Shown here: in pieces, positions 2,862 through 51,308 of the stretch
Layout: the number at the start of each line of letters is the position of its first letter
Position numbering within the stretch: the stretch's first letter is position 1
Origin: an uncultured bacterium
GTDB lineage: Bacteria > Fermentibacterota > Fermentibacteria > Fermentibacterales > JCC-6
Direction: 5' to 3'
Assembly: GCA_964423505.1 (NCBI GenBank)
Contig: CAYREX010000002.1
Location: 24,188 to 88,187 of the forward strand
DNA: 64,000 nt
The notes under the pieces: generated by a model
The model's input: only the letters and a program-made list of their open reading frames with translations
Told to the model about the DNA's origin: nothing
The model's database searches: none
Made by a program: the position numbers and the translations under genes

Positions 2862-4076
2862 ATGGAGTTCTCCGACATCAGGTTCGTCGTAGACTTCGCG
2901 GTGATAGTCATCGCGGCGAAGGCCGCCGGCAGGCTCGTGCATCGCTTCCTCGGACAGCCCAGCGTCATAGGCGAGCTGCTGGTCGGGATGCTCATAGGAC
3001 CCTACGCACTGGGCTCTCTGGACATACCGGGCATCGGGCCGCTCTTCCTGGTGGACGACGAGGGGCTCTTCCGGGAGGGGCTGCTCCACGGGATAACCAT
3101 CGTGGGGATAGTCACCCTCCTCTTCTCGGCGGGACTCGAGACCGACCTCCGCAGGTTCCTCCGCTACGCTCCGAAGGGGCTGGCCATCGGCCTGGGGGGA
3201 GCAATTTTCGGCTTCGCATCCGGAGGCGCGGCGCTGCTACTCTGGGGGGGCGCCGCCGGTCTCGCCGACCCGAGGGTACTGGCTCTGGGGGCGATATCCG
3301 CGGCCACCTCCATATCGCTCACCGTACGGGTGCTCATCGACATGAGGAAGCTGGACTCGCCGGAGAGCGCGACCATCCTCTCGGCCGCGGTGATAGACGA
3401 CGTGATCGGCCTCGTGCTCCTCACCGTGGTTCTCGGGATGGCCGGGCATGGCGGCTCCGTCTCCATGGGGAGCGTTGGCCTGATAGTGCTGAAGGGCTTC
3501 GGCTTCTTCGCGCTGCTCCTTGCCGTCGGGCTCGCCCTGCAGGGACGCATCCTGGCCGGCATCAGGAGGCTCGGCGGCGACTCTGCCCAGGCCGCTGCCG
3601 CGCTGGCCCTCGGGATGCTGGCCGCCGGCCTTGCCGAGATGGCCGGCCTGGCGATGGTGGTCGGCGCCTACGTCATGGGCCTCGGCCTCTCGGGCTCCCG
3701 CACCGCGAGGCACATCTCCTCGAGACTGGAGACGGTGAGGGAGCTGCTGGTGCCGGTCTTCTTCTGCGTCACCGGCATGATGGTCGACTTCAGGACCTTC
3801 GGCTCTGTCATCCGGCTGGGGCTGCTCTATACCGTGCTCTGCGTCGTCGGGAAGTACCTCGGCTGCATGGTGCCGGCCAGGCTCTCCGGCTTCACGCCAA
3901 GGCAGTCGAAGGCCATCGGCGTGGGGATGCTACCCAGGCTCGAGGTGGGCCTGGTGGCGGCCAGCATGGCCATGGTCCGTGGCCTCATAGGCGGCCGGGA
4001 CATGGCCGTGGCCATGATAATGATAATCGTCTCTGCGGTGATAACCCCTCCGCTCCTGCAGAGGACGCTGCGCTAG
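2862..4076 (+). CDS. monovalent cation:proton antiporter, CPA2 (Kef/NapA-like) family
   Basis: ATG 2862 (MEFSDIRFVVDFAVIVIAAKAAGRL...) followed by 10-12 hydrophobic helices, with the typical GELLVGMLIGP motif. The longer N-terminal extension in the track is probably not translated. Confidence 0.7.
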   Translation: MEFSDIRFVVDFAVIVIAAKAAGRLVHRFLGQPSVIGELLVGMLIGPYALGSLDIPGIGPLFLVDDEGLFREGLLHGITIVGIVTLLFSAGLETDLRRFLRYAPKGLAIGLGGAIFGFASGGAALLLWGGAAGLADPRVLALGAISAATSISLTVRVLIDMRKLDSPESATILSAAVIDDVIGLVLLTVVLGMAGHGGSVSMGSVGLIVLKGFGFFALLLAVGLALQGRILAGIRRLGGDSAQAAAALALGMLAAGLAEMAGLAMVVGAYVMGLGLSGSRTARHISSRLETVRELLVPVFFCVTGMMVDFRTFGSVIRLGLLYTVLCVVGKYLGCMVPARLSGFTPRQSKAIGVGMLPRLEVGLVAASMAMVRGLIGGRDMAVAMIMIIVSAVITPPLLQRTLR

Positions 4077-5176
4077 CTCGACGGGGGAGGATCGATGGTC
4101 GCTGCGACCCGGATGCTCCCCGGCACCAGGGGGTCCGGACCCCTGACGGAGCCGGTGAGTATCCTCGCCACCTCCCTGCATCCGCCGTCGCAGCCGCCCA
4201 TATGCCTGCACGGCAGGCACTCCCGGGGCAGGACCCCCCCCCTCCTGTAGGCCATCCAGACATCGCTGGCGCGAAGGCCCTCCCGGTCCCCCGCCATTGC
4301 CAGCCTCAGCTCGGAGTGGTTGCACGCCCGCACCCACCCGGAGGGGCCGACCACGAAGAACCCGGTGGCCGCGCTGCACCTGGAGCCGAAGGAGAGGCTC
4401 GGGTAGTCCTCCTGCCGCGCCACGCAGGGGGGGATCTCCGTGCCCACCGAGCCCCTCCTGCCGGCGCGGGAGAGCACCTCCTCCGCCGTCTCCAGCATCC
4501 GCACCACCCGCCCTCGGTCCAGCTCCAGGCGCTCCCTGTTGGCCAGGCCCCTGCCGCCGGGCAGGAAGCGGTTGAGGAGGACACCGGAAGCCCCGGCGAG
4601 CAGCGCGGCGGCGATGGTCCTGTCCAGCTCATCGAGCCCCGGGGCGGTCACGGCGATGTTGGCGGTGACCCGCAGGCCCTTCGACGAGGCTCTCCGGATG
4701 GCTTCGAGGGCCCTGTCCGGATCGCCGCCCCCGGTAAGGGTCCGATAGGTGGAGAGGCCGGGGAGGCTGACGCTCAGGGCCGCCCCGACGGACGCCAGCA
4801 GCCCCGTCAGCCGGTTCGGCAGCGACCTGCCGCAGGTGAGCAGCGTCAGCTCCGGTGGGCCCTGGCGCCAGGATACTCCCGCCCCCTCCGGCTCCGGGTG
4901 CCTGGCCTCCGTGGAGGCGAGGTGACCGACTATCGCCTCCAGGTCCTCCCTGAGCGTCGGCTCGCCGCCGGTCAGGGCGAATCGGCTCACGCCGTCGTCC
5001 ACCAGTCCGTCCACCACGGCTGTCCACGCCCCGGTCCCCAGCTCAGGCAGCCGCGCGAAGCCGCCTCCCGGCCTCTCCCACGGGCAGGAGCAGAAGAGGC
5101 AGGAGTGGGGGCACCGGTAGGTCAGCTCGAGGACGGCCACTTGGGGCAGGTGGCCACCCGGCTCCCCCCGGGTCAC
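4073..5176 (-). CDS. radical SAM enzyme with C-terminal SPASM auxiliary-cluster domain (protein/peptide-modifying maturase candidate)
   Basis: CxxxCxxC (LTYRCPHSCLFCSCPW) plus FALTGGEPTL. C-terminal 7-Cys SPASM pattern (CVARQ...CSAATGFF...CNHSELRL...CLPCRHMGGCDGGC). GTG start at 5176 overlaps the upstream gene's stop as GTGA. Its stop shares a CTAG palindrome with the convergent antiporter stop. Confidence 0.7.
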   Translation of the reverse strand: MTRGEPGGHLPQVAVLELTYRCPHSCLFCSCPWERPGGGFARLPELGTGAWTAVVDGLVDDGVSRFALTGGEPTLREDLEAIVGHLASTEARHPEPEGAGVSWRQGPPELTLLTCGRSLPNRLTGLLASVGAALSVSLPGLSTYRTLTGGGDPDRALEAIRRASSKGLRVTANIAVTAPGLDELDRTIAAALLAGASGVLLNRFLPGGRGLANRERLELDRGRVVRMLETAEEVLSRAGRRGSVGTEIPPCVARQEDYPSLSFGSRCSAATGFFVVGPSGWVRACNHSELRLAMAGDREGLRASDVWMAYRRGGVLPRECLPCRHMGGCDGGCREVARILTGSVRGPDPLVPGSIRVAATIDPPPSS

Positions 5177-5802
5177 TCCCCGGCCGGGTCCCCGTCGAGT
5201 CCCAGCAGGCCGGCGAGCCTCTGGAGCTCCGACCTCAGAGGCATGTGCGCGTCGTTGTCGGTCACGTAGTAGAGCTCGCCGTCGATGAGCCCGGCGAGCA
5301 TCCTGAGCTCGGAGACGGTGACGTCGCTGCGGTGCTCGGCGCCGTCCTCCCAGGTTACCAGGAGGTCTATGCCCCGGTCCGCGGAATCGCCGCCGCAGCT
5401 GCTGCAGAGACCGGACTCGTCCAGTACGAAGGAGGCGTCCGTCAGCTCGTCCATGGCGGCGACGAGCCTCCTCGCCTCCGGCAGCTCCCTCTCGAGCCAG
5501 GCGAGCTCCCAGTCGCCGCCGAACAGGGTGGTGTCGCCGCATGCCGGACAGACGTGCTGGACCACGTCGGGGACTGCTATCGGCTCGTAGCACATGGCCC
5601 CCATCACCGGCTCCGGCTCCTCCGATGAGCCCACCCTCTCGAGGAGCGCCTCCACGTCGTCCCGGGTGAGACCCTTCATGTACCTGGCGGTCATGGACTT
5701 GGGGACGTGACGGTGACCGCCGCGGAGTGCGCCGCCCGAGCGCAGAGAGCCGGCCGCGAGAACTGCGCCGGCCACCACCAGCGCAAGGATGACGTACTGC
5801 AT
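5173..5802 (-). CDS. secreted/membrane-anchored hypothetical protein with two CxxCGD motifs
   Basis: ATG 5802 preceded by an AGGGAGG RBS. N-terminal signal/TM (MQYVILALVVAGAVLAAGSL). Motifs CPACGDTTLFGGD and CSSCGGDSADRGID. Translationally coupled to the radical SAM gene. Confidence 0.55.
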   Translation of the reverse strand: MQYVILALVVAGAVLAAGSLRSGGALRGGHRHVPKSMTARYMKGLTRDDVEALLERVGSSEEPEPVMGAMCYEPIAVPDVVQHVCPACGDTTLFGGDWELAWLERELPEARRLVAAMDELTDASFVLDESGLCSSCGGDSADRGIDLLVTWEDGAEHRSDVTVSELRMLAGLIDGELYYVTDNDAHMPLRSELQRLAGLLGLDGDPAGE

Positions 5803-5854
5803 TCGAACCTCCCTGCTCCGGCCCGGGACGCTCGGCGGCCCGGGCGTGACGCCC

Positions 5855-7027
5855 TCAGTCCAGCAGCACCACCGGCGCCGACAGGCGCCGCCCCAGGGCC
5901 TCCATCACCACCACGTAGACCCCGGGAGGGGCCTCCCCCTCCCACTCGAAAGCGCTCCGGCCAGCCGGCAGGGCGGCATCGTGAAGGAGCTCCAGGAGCC
6001 TGCCGCGGAGGTCGTAGACCGCCAGCTCCACCCGGCCGGGCTCCTCGAGTCTGACTACGAGGGAGACGGCCCCCGTGGCCGGGCTCGGCGAGGGGGGCGA
6101 GAGCAACGTCCCGGAAGGGTTGCCGGTCTCCCCCGCGCTCTCGTACTCCTCCCACCGGAAGGTGCTCCTGCTGCTGTTCACCCAGCTCCCTCCGGACCGG
6201 GTCCTCGCCACGACCATGTTGTTGTTGCCGTGGACGTCGTAGGAGTACTGGTAGTGCATCCAGTCGACCCAGCCGTCCTCCCAGGTCTCGTAGAGCACCT
6301 CGGAGAGCCGCCCGCCCGAGTAGGTGTAGCTGCACAGCAGGGAGCTCTCCCATGCGGAGCCGGACCAGTCGCTCAGGAGGGACTCGCTGAGGAGGTCGCC
6401 CTGGTAGGTGTAGGTGGTGAGGGAGTGGTTCACCCATGAGCTGCCGGACCAGCTCCGGCCGAGCGTCTCCGAGAGCAGCTCCCCCCGGTAGTCGTAGGTG
6501 TACAGCCAGGAGTTCTCCCAGGAGTCGGCGGCGCTCCAGGTCCGGACGAGGGACTCCGTCATGTTGCCCGACTGGTACTCGTAGGTGGTCAGCGTGCTGT
6601 TGACCCAGCCGCCGGACCACGTCTGAGTGAGAACCTGCCGCGGCTCCTCCCCGCCTTCGTAGGTGTAGGTGCTCAGCTGGCGGTCCTGCCAGGACGAGCC
6701 GGAGCGCTGCTGGTAGAGCATGGTCTCCAGCCTCTCCTGGGAGTCGTATCCGTAGACGTAACGGTAGGAGCTCTCCCAGGAGCTGCCGTCCCAGGTCTCG
6801 TAGAGGACCTCCGCGATTCGGTCGTCGTCCTCTCCGACGTAGGTGTACGTCGCCCTGGTGGTGTAGTCCCAGGAGCCGCCGGACCAGCTCTCGTAGGTGG
6901 CCTCGGTCATCCGGTAGGCGCTCCCCGCAGGCGGCTGCGGCGCCGGATACCCCTCCGGCGGAGGCGAGCCGGACGCCGGGCAGGGCGCGGTCAGACCGAG
7001 GCAGAGAGCCATCAGCAGAGGGTGCAT
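5855..7027 (-). CDS. secreted tandem-repeat protein (approx. 9x ~20-aa W-S-G-S-S-W...Y-T-Y repeats) with T9SS/FlgD-Ig-like C-terminal sorting domain
   Basis: ATG 7027 with GAGAGGAG RBS. Signal peptide MHPLLMALCLGLTAPC. Repeats such as ESWSGGSWDYTTRATYTY, ETWDGSSWESSYRYVYGY, RSWSGSSWVNHSLTTYTYQG. C-terminus VELAVYDLRGRLL...GVYVVVMEALGRRLSAPVVLLD resembles the Por-secretion CTD. Confidence 0.6.
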   Translation of the reverse strand: MHPLLMALCLGLTAPCPASGSPPPEGYPAPQPPAGSAYRMTEATYESWSGGSWDYTTRATYTYVGEDDDRIAEVLYETWDGSSWESSYRYVYGYDSQERLETMLYQQRSGSSWQDRQLSTYTYEGGEEPRQVLTQTWSGGWVNSTLTTYEYQSGNMTESLVRTWSAADSWENSWLYTYDYRGELLSETLGRSWSGSSWVNHSLTTYTYQGDLLSESLLSDWSGSAWESSLLCSYTYSGGRLSEVLYETWEDGWVDWMHYQYSYDVHGNNNMVVARTRSGGSWVNSSRSTFRWEEYESAGETGNPSGTLLSPPSPSPATGAVSLVVRLEEPGRVELAVYDLRGRLLELLHDAALPAGRSAFEWEGEAPPGVYVVVMEALGRRLSAPVVLLD

Positions 7028-32253: not shown

Positions 32254-35200
32254 ATGCGCCTTCCCTCCCGGTCCGGCGACTCCATGACCGCGGACCCCGG
32301 CACGAGGGCCAGGGTGGAGGCCATCCCCCTCTTCGGAGTGGAATGGACCGCCGCCGGCAGGGCCCTCTCCGTCCTCATCTCCTCCCTGCGGGAGGATGAC
32401 GCCGAGAGGCTGTTCGAGAACATCTCCCACATGAGCGAGCCCCCGCCCATCAGCGAGGAGATGGCGGTCAACTGGTTCCTGGCGATACGGGACCTCCCCT
32501 CCTGCGCCATAGTCACGGCCATACAGGAGTTCCTGCACCTGGGCTGGACGTGGAACCAGATAGGTCCCTCGACCGGCATTTCGTTCGAGGAGCTGCTGGC
32601 CTTCCTCTACCGGGCCTTCGAGACCCTCTCGGAGAACCCGGCGGACATGGAGCTGGCCCGGGAGCTGATAAGGTGCGGCTTCACGTGGCCGGAGAGGTTC
32701 GCCTACATCCTGGACAGGATAAGGACCGGGGGAGCCCCGGTGATAAGGGCCATCGAGAGGGCACGTGAGCTCATGCCGGAGGCCTCCCCTGGCTCGATCC
32801 CGGTTCTGGTCGATTTCGCAGTGGGTATCGGCTGGTACCTGCTGGAGGAGGAGGACCTGCCGATATGGAGGCTGGTCGGCCGGAACGGCGAGCTCCTCTA
32901 CAAGCGCCTGCGGGGGCTGTCGCTCCCCCGCGAGACCCTGAGGCTGCTGGCAGGCTTCCTCGGAAGGATGGAGGAGAGCGGCCAGATGGAGAGGCTGCTG
33001 GAGTTCGCCCTCCCCAGGACGATGCTGTCGATAGTGGGAGACATGCCGGGCAACGTCATGGAGGATGCTCTCGTCAGGCTGTCCAGGGGGACCGTCGCAA
33101 TGCTCAAGCGCAAGGCGGAGAGCGAGATATGCCTGAGCATGCTCTCCTTCCGGGGCGAGCTGGACGAGCCGCTCGAGACCGGTAGGGCGCTGGCGGACGT
33201 GCTGCTGTTCGCCGGCCCCGGAGAGGAGATGGCCGACAACCTCTACGAGCTCCTCGAGATAACCGGGCACGATATGGACTCCCGGGTTGTCAGAGGGCTC
33301 GCCTCGGTGCTGGAGGAGCGAAGGGGCAGGGAGGAGTACGCCGGCCTCGGCCACGAGATACTGATGGACTTCATGAGGACGAGCTGGGAGCTCCTGGCCG
33401 GTGGCGAGGGCTACTCGCGCAAGAAGGTCCATTCCATCGGCAGGCTGATGGACGCAGTCTTCGGCTCCACCGACCCGGCCGCCTCCGTGAGGGAGCTGAA
33501 GGCCCGGGTGAGAGAGTCCGCGCACCCTCCGGAGACGCTCCTGTTCTCCTGCACAATGCTGCTCAGGGGCACGGAGAGGGAGCGGAGTACCGAGGCTCTC
33601 GAGCAGTGCGGCGCATTCGCCAACATCATCACCCTGCTGGACGCGGACTACAGGAGGAGGCTGCTGGAGGGCGACCTGCCCGCCTGGCTGGCTCCGGTCA
33701 GAGACGCCGGGCGCGAGGCGACCGAGGACATCTCCAGGTCACTTGAGCGCATATCGGAGAGGGAGCTCAGGGGCCGCTTCCTCGACAGGCTGGTCACACC
33801 CCTTCTCGTGGATTGCGACCCGACGGACCCGCTGTTCAGCGAGCTGCTCTCCTCCGGCGTGGCTACCTACAACCGCGATCTGGGGATAGAGCAGCTCAGG
33901 GAGGCGGAGACCGAGCTGCTGGGCAAGCTCTTCAGGGCGGAGGACAGGAGCAGGGCGGTCCAGGACACCATGCGGACCATCCTCAACATACCCGGGATAG
34001 AGGACCACAGGGCATCGGAGCTCATCCAGGGCACCAGGGAGCTCTGCGAGGAGCTCTCCCGGCAGGCCGTCTGGCTCGAGGAGAAGGGCAACAGGATGTT
34101 CCGCGGCTTCCTCTCCCGTGGGCTCCAGGACTTCTTCCGCGCCCTCATCGAGAACCCGGGAATGGCCGACAGGCTCACCGGCGGACTGACCGGCGAGCTG
34201 CTCGGGAAGGTAATCCAGGACGGCGAGCGGGAGAGGCAGGTCGCCAGGTGGCAGATGGCCACTCTGGTCGAGCTCTTCGGGAGGATAGTCCCGCTCTCCG
34301 CGGAGATAATGGCCGGCAGGCCGGACCTCTTCGAGGAGTACCTGCGCGAGATGGCCGGGCTCAGCGTGAGGTCGATGCACGGCGAGCCGGCCGGCCACTC
34401 ATTCCTCGGCTGGACGGTCCCGGTTCTCGAGAGACAGCTGGTTGAGGAGTTCATACGCAGGCTCGATGACGAATCCCCGCTGGACGGCATACCGGAGGGG
34501 ATAGTCCCGCAGGCCCTCTTCGACGGCTGGAGCGGCAGCCGGAACAGCGCCTTCGTGATACTCAGGGCCTGCGCATCCAGGCTCAAGCCATTCCTGGCCA
34601 GCAGGACCAGGAGGAGGATACTCGCCCGCGAGGGCAGGCGGCTCGTAGAGGGGCTCCTGGGGAGCGCCCGGGCCGACTTCCTCGAGCCGGAAGCCGAACC
34701 GGAGCTGGCGGGAACGGTATCCGAGCTGGCTGACTACGCCGCGGACACCGACCTGATAGAGGTCGTCCGCTGCATGGAGAGCGGGTTCCCGGACCCGCCT
34801 CCCCCGTGGGAGACCGCGGTCAGGGGTTTCTTCCAGCGCTTCTCCCCCCCCGAGGGCGAGAATCCCTGCCGCCACTGGAGGGAGAGGGCGCTGACCCAGC
34901 TGGACAACATCATGGTGGACGTTCTCCTCCTCTGCAGCGACATGCAGAGCCTCAAGATGATGGACTCGCTGCTGGACGAGTTCGTAGAGGTGGTCGGCTA
35001 CCTGTCGGCAAGCGACGGAGTCGACCTGCCGGTCAGCCTGGACAACCTCTCCAGGTCGCTTTCCGCCGGCCTCTCGCGCCGGGGATCGAGAGGTGTCAGG
35101 GCCGCCGGGAAGAGCCTGGAGAAGACCCTCTACACCTCTCTCTGGAGGCGGAACGCCACCCAGCTCATCAGCGCGGCGGTAGGCGGGCGGGTGCCGACCA

Positions 35201-46472: not shown

Positions 46473-47606
46473 GCCGGGCGTTCCTTATTTGATTTGGTAA
46501 GCTATCTTTGTCCCCTACAAGCATGATAAATGAATTTGTTGCATCCAGTGGGTTTCCTGGATACACTCGAAGTATGCCGTATGTGATGAGGTTGGATCAT
46601 CCGGGTAGCCTACACCACGTCATGTCGCATTGCGTGGAGGGATGCTGGGCCTTCTCCGGAGACAGGGCTCGGGAGGATTTCGTCCGGCGACTCACGGGAC
46701 TAGTCACTGAATCTCAACTCGCCTTGCATGCCTGGTGCCTGATGGGAAACCACCTGCATCTCCTCGTGGAGGCTGGCGAGAATGGCATTACCCGACCCAT
46801 GCATCGGTTGCTCTGCGGATTCGCCAAGGCCTACAACAAGAGAGAGGACAGACGCGGCCATGTCTTCGATGCACGCTTCAAATCCATTCTTGTGGAGGGA
46901 TGCCTCTATTATCTCGGTCTCATAGCCTATATCCACCTGAATCCCATCAGAGCCGGGGTCCTGGCAGGCTTGGATGAGCTTGTGGAATACCCCTGGACAG
47001 GACACTCCGAGATTATGGGCGAAGTCGAACGCGGCATTCTGACCTTCGGGAGATTGACAGAGGAGTTGAACACGGACATCGGGACTCTCCGGGCCAGCTA
47101 TAAGTGCTTGCTCGAAAATAGGCTACACAATGATGCCCCGGAGTTCGAGAGCGGTACGTATTGCATTGGTCCTGCAGGTCTGATGGAGTACGCAACCGGG
47201 GTCATGAGCTCCAGGGCTTCCCCGATACTGGGAAGCAGGAGCTTCGCGCTGAAAATGTACTCCCGCTACAGAGGAACCGCCAGGAGAACGCTGAGGTGCA
47301 GGGAGTCACAGCACCGGACCCTGGAGGATTTGCTGTCCTCGTTCTCCACAGAATCCGGGATACCCGTCAGTACTCTGAGAAGTGGGGCGCGGGATCGCAG
47401 GCTTGTGCGAGTCAGGCGGAAGCTGACCACCAGAATGTCAGAGCTTGGCATGTCGCAATCCGATATAGCATCCTTCCTCGGGATATCAGCATCCACGGTT
47501 CACAGAATCCTCAGAGGTCGCGACTCATGCTGCAGGCCGTCTGAGTTCGAATAAAGGCCCAAGCGTTCCCAAATAGCCTTACCAAATCAAGTAAGGAAAG
47601 CCCGGC
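46473..47606 (+). mobile_element. IS-like unit: HUH Y1 (IS200/RAYT-family) transposase gene bracketed by ~34-bp imperfect inverted repeats
   Basis: Left GCCGGGCGTTCCTTATTTGATTTGGTAAGCTAT (46473-46505). Right ATAGCCTTACCAAATCAAGTAAGGAAAGCCCGGC (47573-47606) is its reverse complement with ~30/34 identity. The unit exactly fills the gap between the atpD stop and the elbB-like stop. Confidence 0.6.
46523..47554 (+). CDS. tnpA: IS200-like / REP-associated tyrosine (Y1 HUH) transposase with C-terminal DnaA-domain-IV-like HTH
   Basis: RLDHPGSLHHVMSHCVEG, HUH motif HLHLLVE, catalytic Tyr region YIHLNPIRAG. C-terminal SQSDIASFLGISASTVHRIL. Start uncertain (ATG 46523 or ATG 46574). Confidence 0.7.
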   Translation: MINEFVASSGFPGYTRSMPYVMRLDHPGSLHHVMSHCVEGCWAFSGDRAREDFVRRLTGLVTESQLALHAWCLMGNHLHLLVEAGENGITRPMHRLLCGFAKAYNKREDRRGHVFDARFKSILVEGCLYYLGLIAYIHLNPIRAGVLAGLDELVEYPWTGHSEIMGEVERGILTFGRLTEELNTDIGTLRASYKCLLENRLHNDAPEFESGTYCIGPAGLMEYATGVMSSRASPILGSRSFALKMYSRYRGTARRTLRCRESQHRTLEDLLSSFSTESGIPVSTLRSGARDRRLVRVRRKLTTRMSELGMSQSDIASFLGISASTVHRILRGRDSCCRPSEFE

Positions 47607-49941: not shown

Positions 49942-49989
49942 TACCCCTTTACATCTACCCCTTGGTCCCCGATAATGTAATCAGGCGGT

Positions 49990-50085
49990 AGAGCACCGTC
50001 GGGCAAACCGGGGGAGACCCCGGGACGCAAAGCCACGGGTCCCAGCCACCGCATGGGGACGGTGGAAGGACGGCCGGGTTGCCGT
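49990..50085 (+). promoter_or_regulatory. c-di-GMP-I (GEMM) riboswitch, copy 1
   Basis: GGGCAAACC-GGGG-GAGA-CCCC-GGGACGCAAAGCCACGGGUCC...GGACGGCCGGGUUGCCG. This matches the GEMM core (GCAAACC, GNRA loop, GGGACGCAAAGCC, 3' AGCNGGGUUNCCG element). Confidence 0.7.
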
Positions 50086-50168
50086 TTGCAGAGGCAAACC
50101 GGGGGAAACCCCGGGACGCAAAGCCACGGGTCCCAGTCCGGGAGACCGGAAAGGACAGCCGGGCCGCC
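50086..50168 (+). promoter_or_regulatory. c-di-GMP-I (GEMM) riboswitch, copy 2 (tandem)
   Basis: GAGGCAAACC-GGGG-GAAA-CCCC-GGGACGCAAAGCCACGGGUCC...GGACAGCCGGGCCGCC. 43-nt core identical to copy 1 apart from the tetraloop. An 8-bp hairpin CCGCCCCG-GGAA-CGGGGCGG follows, immediately 5' of the GAGGAGG RBS. Confidence 0.65.
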
Positions 50169-50211
50169 AGACGACCGCCCCGGGAACGGGGCGGTTGAGG
50201 AGGTGCTCGAG

Positions 50212-50487
50212 ATGAAGTGGATACCACTACTTATGGTAACGCTTCTTCCGTCGGTGCTGTTTGCTGGTGTAGTCGTGACCTCCGCTCCAGCCACCCCCGA
50301 GAATCTCGTGGTCGTGGCGAGGGCATCCATGGAGGAAGGCGACTACGTGACCGCATGGGCTCTCTACGAATGCGCCCTCAGGAGGGATCCCCACTCTCCC
50401 GAGGCACTCGCAGGCAGACTCGCCGCGAGGGCCGAGCTGGAGGAGCGCGGAGAAGAGGACCTGATAGCGGCATTGTACCGGCAGTAG
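50212..50487 (+). CDS. small secreted protein (91 aa; signal peptide + single TPR-like helix pair), hypothetical
   Basis: GAGGAGG RBS then ATG 50212. MKWIPLLMVTLLPSVLFAGVVVTSAPA signal. First ORF downstream of the tandem riboswitches. Confidence 0.5.
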   Translation: MKWIPLLMVTLLPSVLFAGVVVTSAPATPENLVVVARASMEEGDYVTAWALYECALRRDPHSPEALAGRLAARAELEERGEEDLIAALYRQ

Positions 50488-50591
50488 CACCGTACAGAGC
50501 GAGGGGCGGGCCGAGAGGCCCGTCCCGCCAGTTCCAGAGGCCCCGCGGTACCCCGAGAGAAGATGCCCCACAGGAGAAAGGAAGAACCCGT

Positions 50592-51308
50592 ATGTGCGAG
50601 TTCGACGATGAGCTCTACGAGTGCGAATGCGACGATTACAGGCTGCCCCTCATAGGCGAGAAGGCCCCGGAGTTCGAGGCCGAGACGACCCAGGGCCCCA
50701 TCAGCTTCCCCGAGGACTACAGCGGCAAGTGGGTGGTCTTCTTCTCCCATCCCGCCGACTTCACTCCGGTCTGCACCACGGAGTTCATGACCTTCGCCTC
50801 GATGCAGGACGAATTCTCCCGGCTCGACTGCGAGCTCCTCGGCCTCTCGATCGACAGCAACTTCAGCCACATCGCGTGGGTGAGGACCATACGTGAGAAG
50901 ATAGAGTTCGGCGGCATGAAGAACGTCGACGTCCGCTTCCCCATTATCAGCGACCTCTCCATGGAGGTCGCCATGAAGTACGGCATGCTCCATCCGGACG
51001 CCAGCGACACGCAGGCGGTCAGGGCGGTCTTCATAATAGACCCCGACTCGGTAGTCAGGGCCATCCTCTACTACCCGCTCAGCAACGGCCGGAACATGAA
51101 GGAGATCAAGAGGCTCCTGCTCGCCCTGCAGCACACGGACGAGCACGGCGTCGCAACTCCCGCCAACTGGCATCCGGGCGACGACGTCATCATCCCCCCG
51201 CCGGGAACCTGCGCCGCCGCCGACGAGCGCGTCGAAGGCGCCGGCGACGAGTACCGCTGCCAGGACTGGTTCCTCTGCCTGAAGAAGTGCACCCACGGAG
51301 AGTGCTGA
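50592..51308 (+). CDS. 1-Cys/Prx6-type peroxiredoxin with Cys-rich N- and C-terminal extensions
   Basis: FSHPADFTPVCTTEF peroxidatic motif. N-terminal extension MCEFDDELYECECDD. C-terminal YRCQDWFLCLKKCTHGEC. GGAGAAAGG RBS. Confidence 0.85.
   Translation: MCEFDDELYECECDDYRLPLIGEKAPEFEAETTQGPISFPEDYSGKWVVFFSHPADFTPVCTTEFMTFASMQDEFSRLDCELLGLSIDSNFSHIAWVRTIREKIEFGGMKNVDVRFPIISDLSMEVAMKYGMLHPDASDTQAVRAVFIIDPDSVVRAILYYPLSNGRNMKEIKRLLLALQHTDEHGVATPANWHPGDDVIIPPPGTCAAADERVEGAGDEYRCQDWFLCLKKCTHGEC

Follow-up and report, generated by a model that had tools for sequence, protein, structure and literature searches.

The 5′ untranslated region (UTR) of a gene for a 91-residue protein, located in a 64,000-nucleotide stretch of DNA from an uncultured bacterium of the Fermentibacteria (contig CAYREX010000002.1; this whole stretch is the window, and coordinates are those of the window unless another locus is named), carries what is with little doubt a dual aptamer of the cyclic di-GMP class I (c-di-GMP-I, GEMM). 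We consider it rather likely that the two adjacent aptamers and a single translational platform constitute one riboswitch for a monocistronic gene. Searching the 64-kb window with Rfam gave two matches to RF01051 (c-di-GMP-I) on the + strand, one at 49992–50086 with 64.9 bits (E = 2e-10) and one at 50087–50171 with 59.7 bits (E = 3.8e-9), both above the gathering score of 35 bits, in agreement with the two consecutive aptamers that had been proposed in an earlier, sequence-only reading. Both matches are full-length (model positions 1–87) and abut at 50086/50087, and at gathering thresholds no other RNA family was matched in the window. The association of tandem aptamers with a tiny protein gene, put forward in the same reading, is backed by the Rfam scores, by compensatory changes and by its presence in every readable relative. 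The elements of the leader and the gene behind it are as follows.

49948–49976 (+): sigma-70-like promoter, TTTACA (49948–49953), a 17-nt spacer and GATAAT (49971–49976), matching at 10 of 12 positions.
49984–50000 (+): 5′-terminal hairpin GGCGGU-AGAGC-ACCGUC, 6 bp, with 99.2% of cells paired across the 20-leader alignment.
49991–50000 (+): putative anti-Shine-Dalgarno (anti-SD) strand GAGCACC-G-UC, the 5′ arm of a long-range helix, in the position of the 5′ strand of P1 of aptamer 1.
49992–50086 (+): c-di-GMP-I aptamer 1, core 50002–50082, with compensatory changes in P2 and distal P3.
50083–50088 (+): linker strand CGUUUG, the 5′ strand of P1 of aptamer 2, immediately 3′ of C92 of aptamer 1 and invariant in the 20 leaders.
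50087–50171 (+): c-di-GMP-I aptamer 2, core 50093–50167, with compensatory changes in P2 and in all five distal P3 pairs.
50168–50173 (+): CAGACG, the 3′ strand of P1 of aptamer 2, directly after C92 of aptamer 2 and pairing with CGUUUG.
50172–50197 (+): GC-rich hairpin, a stem of 9–11 bp capped by a GGAA loop, which separates aptamer 2 from the Shine-Dalgarno (SD) sequence.
50197–50208 (+): SD sequence GAGGAGG (50197–50203) with the invariant spacer UGCUC, the target of the anti-SD strand.
50212–50487 (+): the 91-residue gene, encoding an N-terminal signal peptide or membrane anchor (residues ~4–22) followed by about 1.5 tetratricopeptide repeats (TPR).

The two aptamers share a 44-nt direct repeat (50002–50045 and 50093–50136, 91 nt from start to start) in which 43 of 44 positions are identical, the single difference being the P2 tetraloop, GAGA in aptamer 1 and GAAA in aptamer 2. 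What had been described as an identical core of 43 nt is this slightly interrupted repeat, whereas the remark that the P3 hairpins are unlike each other holds for the distal P3 of the two aptamers.

Relatives of the gene are encoded at 15 genome loci, in metagenome-assembled genomes of Aegiribacteria/Fermentibacteria, and at eight metagenome loci, and the window DNA has an identical copy in a metagenome assembly. The promoter, the 5′ hairpin, two aptamers, the variable hairpin and GGAGGUGCUC are found upstream of the gene at 22 of 24 readable related loci, with one aptamer at the other two; CGUUUG and CAGACG likewise belong to the leader that is conserved upstream of this gene family. Two abutting RF01051 matches lie directly upstream of the orthologous open reading frame (ORF) at 12 of the 15 genome loci, and the metagenome loci are alike in this. 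The exceptions are L015, which is truncated by the contig end, and L017 and L023, where one match was dropped by clan/overlap filtering, yet the aptamer is visible in the sequence. L005 (380–469) and L021 (337–425) each carry a single hybrid aptamer, in which the 5′ hairpin of aptamer 1 is combined with the P3 and tail of aptamer 2; such hybrids would be consistent with recombination between the 44-nt repeats. At L021, ATA (472–474) also replaces the ATG start. The same leader precedes divergent homologues at L026 (P0040) and at L027 and L029 (P0118), P0118 being 87 residues long and the most divergent of the leader-preceded homologues.

A whole-leader alignment of 20 sequences (A2) was used to assess the secondary structure. 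The proposed structure is 96.6% paired, compared with 28–49% with slid partners, and 15 pairs covary, with 49 cells changed on both sides, a value reached by none of 500 shuffles. These two-sided changes concentrate in the hairpin preceding the SD and, within each aptamer, in P2 and distal P3, so that P2 with its GNRA tetraloop and P3 are both present and backed by compensatory changes in each aptamer. P1 of aptamer 2, CGUUUG/CAGACG, has 6 bp and is 96.7% paired in the relatives. For aptamer 1, folding and alignment revealed the long-range GAGCACC/GGUGCUC helix but no P1 formed locally. In about half of the genomes, aptamers 1 and 2 have the same P2 stem (A2 columns 64–79 and 158–173), and this stem differs from one genome to the next, a pattern suggestive of gene conversion between the two repeats. 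Pairing between the P2 stems of the two aptamers was rejected as the cause, given that the stems differ at L011, L014, L017 and L023 and each is compensated within itself; occasional gene conversion fits better. The terminal loop of P3 in aptamer 1 contains a conserved GGGG(A) (50055–50059; A2 columns 111–115) to which the class consensus assigns no role, and no consistent pairing partner was found for it.

The window has a GC content of 67%, far above that of the leaders of its relatives, and its source is accordingly a high-GC relative of Candidatus Aegiribacteria. A coding interpretation of the leader (a 144-residue ORF from 50053) was rejected, the 'extensions' of some database gene calls being the aptamer core translated in three frames (TQSHGS, GRKAT and RDAKPR); evolution of the leader through compensatory base-pair changes counters it as well.

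Each of the 20 aligned leaders has TTTACA and the −10 element at a constant distance, and the promoter would place the transcript start just 5′ of the first hairpin (about 7 nt). GAGCACC sits in the loop and the 3′ arm of that hairpin and is complementary at all seven positions to GGUGCUC at 23 of 24 loci, both strands being invariant. GGUGCUC in turn overlaps the last two G of GGAGG together with the spacer, and two further C–G pairs cover the first GG. The resulting long-range anti-SD helix comprises 9 bp and is 99.4% paired across the 20 leaders, its positions being either invariant or changed from C to U only. Changes in the 5′ hairpin are of the same kind (C to U, giving G–U), apart from a double change from U–A to G–C in the divergent L027, and C-to-U changes in the shared strand keep the pairing with G in both alternative helices. 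All 24 loci have the motif GG(A/G)GGUGCUC, whereas the 2–4 nt between UGCUC and ATG vary freely. The invariant spacer and hairpin loop are best explained by GAGCACC:GGUGCUC pairing. The 5′ anti-SD strand and the hairpin that competes for it, a key element of the platform, had been overlooked in the sequence-only reading.

CGUUUG pairs at five to six of six positions with CAGACG, CAAGCG or CAAACG and corresponds to the P1 annotated in RF03167. At all tandem loci the linker from one aptamer to the next consists of CGUUUG and 4–7 further nt, and in the window it has 11 nt (CGUUUG plus 5). The hairpin in front of the SD was previously given as 8 bp of GC pairs abutting the ribosome-binding site (RBS); it does abut GAGGAGG, and the stem is longer, 9–11 bp. 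The base of its stem covaries in the relatives, one pair being U–A in nine and C–G in seven, and the make-up of its sequence is not conserved. We rejected this hairpin as an intrinsic terminator, as it has no U-tract in the window or in relatives of lower GC content and no terminator was called there on the + strand, and also as a local anti-SD element, as its C-rich arm is the 3′ one in many relatives and the 5′ one in the window. A pairing of leader and linker, GGCGGU/ACCGUU, resembling the P0 helix of glycine riboswitches, was not adopted; it would use C92, exclude P1 of aptamer 2, and has no supporting variation.

A translational mechanism of the SD/anti-SD type is the probable one for this leader. 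The strands are arranged in the order 5′-[anti-SD][aptamer 1 core][CGUUUG][aptamer 2 core][CAGACG][hairpin][SD]-3′, and this order means that anti-SD:SD and CGUUUG:CAGACG can stack as one interrupted stem. GAGCACC-G-UC would pair with GG-A-GGUGCUC of the SD region and take the place of P1 of aptamer 1; this closing helix would enclose the core of aptamer 1, inserted at the junction, the CGUUUG/CAGACG helix and the variable hairpin, with aptamer 2 at the tip of the stem. Since CGUUUG both follows C92 of aptamer 1 and forms the P1 strand of aptamer 2, the two aptamers would share a short helix that has a ligand pocket at either end. The 5′-terminal hairpin GGCGGU/ACCGUC would compete with the closed form by hiding the anti-SD strand, thus serving as an 'anti-anti-SD'. 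When c-di-GMP occupies both aptamers, the closed form would be stabilized, the RBS masked and translation reduced; when the ligand is scarce, the 5′ hairpin would free the SD. We infer this direction, OFF at high c-di-GMP, and lean towards it only slightly. Both ligands would converge on a single output, which could make the response cooperative, and a steeper, 'digital' response, as is expected of tandem aptamers, would be plausible.

Folding models bear on this mechanism in both directions. RNAfold places the long-range helix in the minimum free energy (MFE) structure of the window and of 14 of the 20 leaders, and in 14 of the 20 the long-range helix, both aptamers, P1 of aptamer 2 and the hairpin come together in a single nested structure. 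In Boltzmann samples, the 5′ hairpin excludes the long-range helix and vice versa, and the two together account for nearly all structures. They compete at about 1:1, and the balance shifts between loci in the way that a switch would lead one to expect, the probability of the long-range helix being 0.95 in the window. Forcing both aptamers and P1 of aptamer 2 to form raised the probability of the anti-SD:SD helix at 13 of 21 loci and lowered it at one, the mean increasing from 0.60 to 0.79.

Several results weigh against the proposed mechanism. The mean unpaired probability of the SD in nearest-neighbour models is 0.28 in one state and 0.29 in the other, and the probability of a free SD in Boltzmann samples is at most 0.26; the SD is thus rarely fully unpaired in either state, and the models do not show a change in accessibility. 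In the unconstrained ensemble of the window, aptamer 2 and its P1 do not form, and forcing the holo fold costs 12.9 kcal/mol, a cost that two tightly bound ligands could, as we assume, plausibly pay. No aligned leader has a double compensatory change in the anti-SD:SD helix, which, both strands being invariant, relies on conservation and complementarity rather than on covariation. Aptamer 1 lacks a canonical P1, the strand 3′ of its C92 being paired elsewhere, and its binding of ligand in this context is therefore putative. Finally, the majority of the orthologous aptamers have U, C or A at position 20, which makes their ligand affinity or identity uncertain.

Other mechanisms have to be weighed against the same observations. 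The architecture could work as an ON switch, in which ligand-bound aptamer 1 stacks on the 5′ hairpin, makes it more stable and so keeps the anti-SD hidden, while the long-range helix blocks translation in the absence of ligand. That the long-range helix is the ligand-free MFE structure at most loci, with its high probability in the window, fits such a default-OFF state, and the 3′ arm of the 5′ hairpin ends beside position 20. The geometry is less favourable: with the hairpin formed, only 2 nt are left between the helix and G21, compared with 5–6 nt in models of the class, whereas the long-range helix leaves 4 nt in the window and 5 nt in the relatives, close to the 6 unpaired nt in RF03167. 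Enforcing the folded aptamers, moreover, moves the ensemble towards the long-range helix and away from the hairpin, and a loop of ~200 nt should be easier to close when it encloses compact aptamers. We therefore regard the ON switch as unlikely, with the OFF direction preferred. Control at the level of transcription or RNA stability, by Rho-dependent termination or with the GC hairpin as an atypical terminator, is less probable still. Most characterized c-di-GMP-I switches are transcriptional, and a conserved, covarying hairpin does stand 3′ of aptamer 2, but the missing U-tract and terminator call described above speak against it, and the invariant UGCUC and the 5′ GAGCACC would be left without explanation.

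It is more improbable again that the leader contains two independent, complete riboswitches in series, acting pseudo-cooperatively. Tandem c-di-GMP-I riboswitches are classed in this way in the literature, Sherlock et al. 2022 (PMC9481103) filing them under 'multiple expression platforms', and in the Bc3-5 triple tandem each aptamer is followed by a terminator. In the window the sequence already contradicts this arrangement. The Rfam matches abut, the short linker contains no expression platform, terminator or SD, and the one SD and one anti-SD lie at the two ends of the leader. The aptamers do not each have a platform of their own; two like aptamers are directly adjacent and share one platform, and hence they are not two complete riboswitches. 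It is just as improbable that one or both aptamers sense another cyclic dinucleotide, such as 3′3′-cyclic GMP-AMP (cGAMP), or are relics that bind no ligand. This possibility draws on position 20, which is unconserved among the orthologues, each of the four bases being found there, and at which A confers cGAMP binding (PMC6140456), as well as on the RF03167 scores of some relatives. It is countered by G20, A47 and C92 in both aptamers of the window, by the retention of A47 in the RF03167-scoring relatives, which lack the variant-defining G47, and by structural selection on both aptamers.

In the Vc2 aptamer, G20 contacts one guanine of the ligand, C92 pairs with the other and A47 intercalates, and an A at position 20 leads to c-GAMP binding (PMC6140456, PMC5888326, PMC9481103). 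Using Vc2 numbering, we located the three positions by counting from the conserved GC/GACGC pairs, their roles being taken from PMC6140456 and PMC5888326. The contacts are G20 at 50002, A47 at 50029 and C92 at 50082 in aptamer 1, and G20 at 50093, A47 at 50120 and C92 at 50167 in aptamer 2. Because all three are present in both aptamers of the window, c-di-GMP is the predicted ligand; with G and not A at position 20 in both, neither belongs to the c-GAMP (GEMM-Ib) group. In the orthologous aptamers A47 and C92 are invariant whereas position 20 is mostly U, C or A, and in aptamer 2 mostly U (A2 columns 58 and 152 correspond to 50002 and 50093). This variation may reflect tuned affinity or specificity, or a G20 that is dispensable in the subfamily.

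Nor does aptamer 2 belong to the c-di-GMP-I-GGC variant (RF03167), for which it scores 47.6 bits against a threshold of 59 and has A47 instead of G47. Three relatives pass that threshold (L023, 446–535; L027, 2880–2969; L029, 760–849), and all of them keep A47; we rejected their membership in the GGC variant, A47 being retained where the model consensus is G47. Since aptamers with A47 pass a model that includes P1, canonical aptamers can score higher with RF03167 than with RF01051.

Among tandem riboswitches, the c-di-GMP-I type is the most numerous, with 347 doublets and 12 triplets catalogued (PMC9481103). Such tandems have been described as several complete riboswitches, one after another and each with its own platform (PMC9481103, PMC12452182), whereas Table 1 of PMC9481103 lists only glycine and guanidine-II riboswitches as the type with two aptamers and one platform. 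The novelty of an abutting pair with one platform is provisional and relative to the way in which these reviews class the tandems, and the layout is probably an architectural variant of a known aptamer class. The aptamers themselves are ordinary, c-di-GMP-I aptamers and their tandem forms being well known.

Vc2 of Vibrio cholerae, the RF01051 type, shares with the window aptamers the P2 GNRA tetraloop, P3, the GCAAAC...GACGCAAAG core and G20/A47/C92. In Vc2, translation is turned OFF when P1 forms and thereby masks an RBS some distance away (PMC11705072 and its reference 58), and the present leader, too, is probably translational. The differences are that here there are two aptamers, that the strand 5′ of G20 of aptamer 1 would pair with an SD ~200 nt downstream, that the strand 3′ of C92 of aptamer 1 is the P1 strand of aptamer 2, and that the leader occurs in Fermentibacteria ahead of a new gene family. 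With the Bc3-5 triple tandem of Bacillus thuringiensis, in which a terminator after each aptamer makes transcriptional ON switches (PMC4759541), and with the catalogued doublets and triplets, the leader has in common several c-di-GMP-I aptamers in one 5′ UTR and an expected sharper dose-response. Unlike in Bc3-5, the aptamers abut, there is no terminator, and the one platform is SD-based.

The closest likeness in layout is to the tandem glycine riboswitch, which also has two aptamers for the same ligand, a short linker and one platform, and of which natural single-aptamer variants exist ('singlet' glycine riboswitches there, L005 and L021 here). Fold and ligand are unrelated, and in the present case the aptamers would be nested, aptamer 2 lying inside the closing helix of aptamer 1. 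The likeness is one of layout; for cooperativity there is a modelling hint, the gain of the closing helix at 13 of 21 loci on enforcing the folded aptamers, and contacts between the aptamers are conjectural. A bolder proposal would make the leader the c-di-GMP-I counterpart of the glycine riboswitch, with nested aptamers, a shared 6-bp helix and an SD-containing closing helix, truly cooperative, lineage-wide in Fermentibacteria and with a relaxed G20 that tunes affinity or specificity; taken as a whole this is tentative, and we hold it somewhat more doubtful than not.

The product of the gene has 38 homologues of 89–90 residues with 55–75% identity, all of them within Aegiribacteria/Fermentibacteria and those with names coming from Candidatus Aegiribacteria. 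Their alignment contains an invariant TPR-like signature, A..YE.AL.R.P.S..A..G...A. The ORF is intact across 21 loci, and its variable sites number 46, 39 and 70 at the first, second and third codon positions of 78 codons; this third-position bias indicates purifying selection on the protein, and the ORF is thus a real gene. Pfam matches are below the cut-offs (TPR_19, 19.2 bits against 25, E = 0.0015; TPR_14, 17.8 bits against 23.5), while a precomputed PF14559 match exists for several homologues. In the AlphaFold model, with a pLDDT of 84 (core above 90), an N-terminal hydrophobic helix (residues 4–18) is followed by helices 29–41, 45–58 and 63–90. The best fold matches in the Protein Data Bank are almost all TPR proteins, with root-mean-square deviations of ~1.0 Å over ~50 residues and 29–36% identity to consensus TPR designs, their E-values being weak (0.08 or higher) because the domain is so small. 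Model, fold matches and profile thus agree on a TPR fold with its signature residues. The tiny exported protein with one TPR-like unit that the sequence-only reading had described is borne out by the hydrophobic N-terminus, the sub-threshold TPR_19 match, the modelled helices and these fold matches.

The N-terminal hydrophobic region comprises 19 residues, with V-x-S as a possible cleavage site, and could be either a cleaved signal peptide or a membrane anchor. Like other small TPR proteins and consensus TPR units, the protein has three helices (residues ~29–90) that superpose on consensus TPR designs; it differs in having only ~1.5 repeats, fused to an N-terminal hydrophobic segment, and in its Pfam scores below cut-off. 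Hundreds of TPR proteins with multiple repeats match a profile of the family, with E-values as low as 5e-20, and in an exhaustive profile search the full-length relatives formed four clusters at 50% identity, all from this lineage, the remainder being generic multi-repeat TPR proteins.

The leader shows that c-di-GMP signalling reaches an uncultured lineage of phylum level (Aegiribacteria/Fermentibacteria), whose one strictly conserved riboswitch target near this locus is a lineage-specific, putatively exported TPR protein of ~90 residues; this protein is a candidate component of a c-di-GMP effector pathway. If the proposed mechanism is true, adjacent aptamers, one SD-masking platform and a competing 5′ hairpin would make a compact design for cooperative sensing and a biosensor scaffold, for which the single-aptamer and position-20 variants are ready-made natural controls.

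In most relatives a convergent seryl-tRNA synthetase (SerRS) gene follows ~100 bp after the small ORF, and the regulated unit is accordingly monocistronic. Downstream, on the opposite strand, the relatives keep the gene order SerRS, DAGK-like, DegT-like aminotransferase, and a PHP-domain gene is often found upstream. Directly 3′ of the small ORF stands one further element:

50503–50526 (+): terminator-like GC hairpin; at L008 a near-identical hairpin follows the ORF, and then the convergent SerRS gene.

A 1-Cys peroxiredoxin gene (50592–51308, +) lies between the small ORF and the SerRS gene only in the window, as judged by comparing this gap with that of L003, L007, L008, L012, L017, L018, L020–L022 and L024. 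Since the conserved hairpin follows the ORF, the peroxiredoxin gene is probably outside the riboswitch unit and looks like a lineage-specific insertion behind that hairpin; as a co-regulated output it is unlikely, being absent from the relatives. A different insertion of 1.4–2.9 kb occupies the same gap at L006, L014, L015 and L016.

Genes for DegT, a sugar transferase and glycosyltransferases are in the neighbourhood in the window and in most relatives. The adjacency to a polysaccharide locus noted in the sequence-only reading therefore holds as a conserved neighbourhood, but the SerRS and DAGK genes intervene on the opposite strand, and the suggested role in matrix or adhesion is speculation. 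At L026 the neighbours (3551–6041) include a glycosyltransferase and a MurJ-like flippase, and at L027 (1–2540 and 3614–4663) a gene for SprA of the type IX secretion system and a response-regulator/HD-GYP gene of the c-di-GMP phosphodiesterase type. From the gene neighbourhood, a role of the small protein as an envelope- or matrix-related adaptor would fit. No GGDEF motif was found in any window ORF of at least 100 residues, which contain only loose EAL-like strings.

Elsewhere in the window, a sub-threshold match to the mraW RNA motif was found at 35033–35133 on the − strand (25.1 bits, E = 0.74; threshold 50 bits). Both strands contain long spurious ORFs that overlap real genes; one of them, at 50217–51308, crosses the small ORF in another frame. 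An ORF at 46508–47554 (+), situated between V-type ATPase genes and a DJ-1/PfpI gene, has a weak match to an IS200-like Y1 transposase and a C-terminal helix-turn-helix; at L013 nothing matches it in the equivalent interval, which lies between the genes for the ATPase D subunit and DJ-1, and it may be a domesticated or mobile element.

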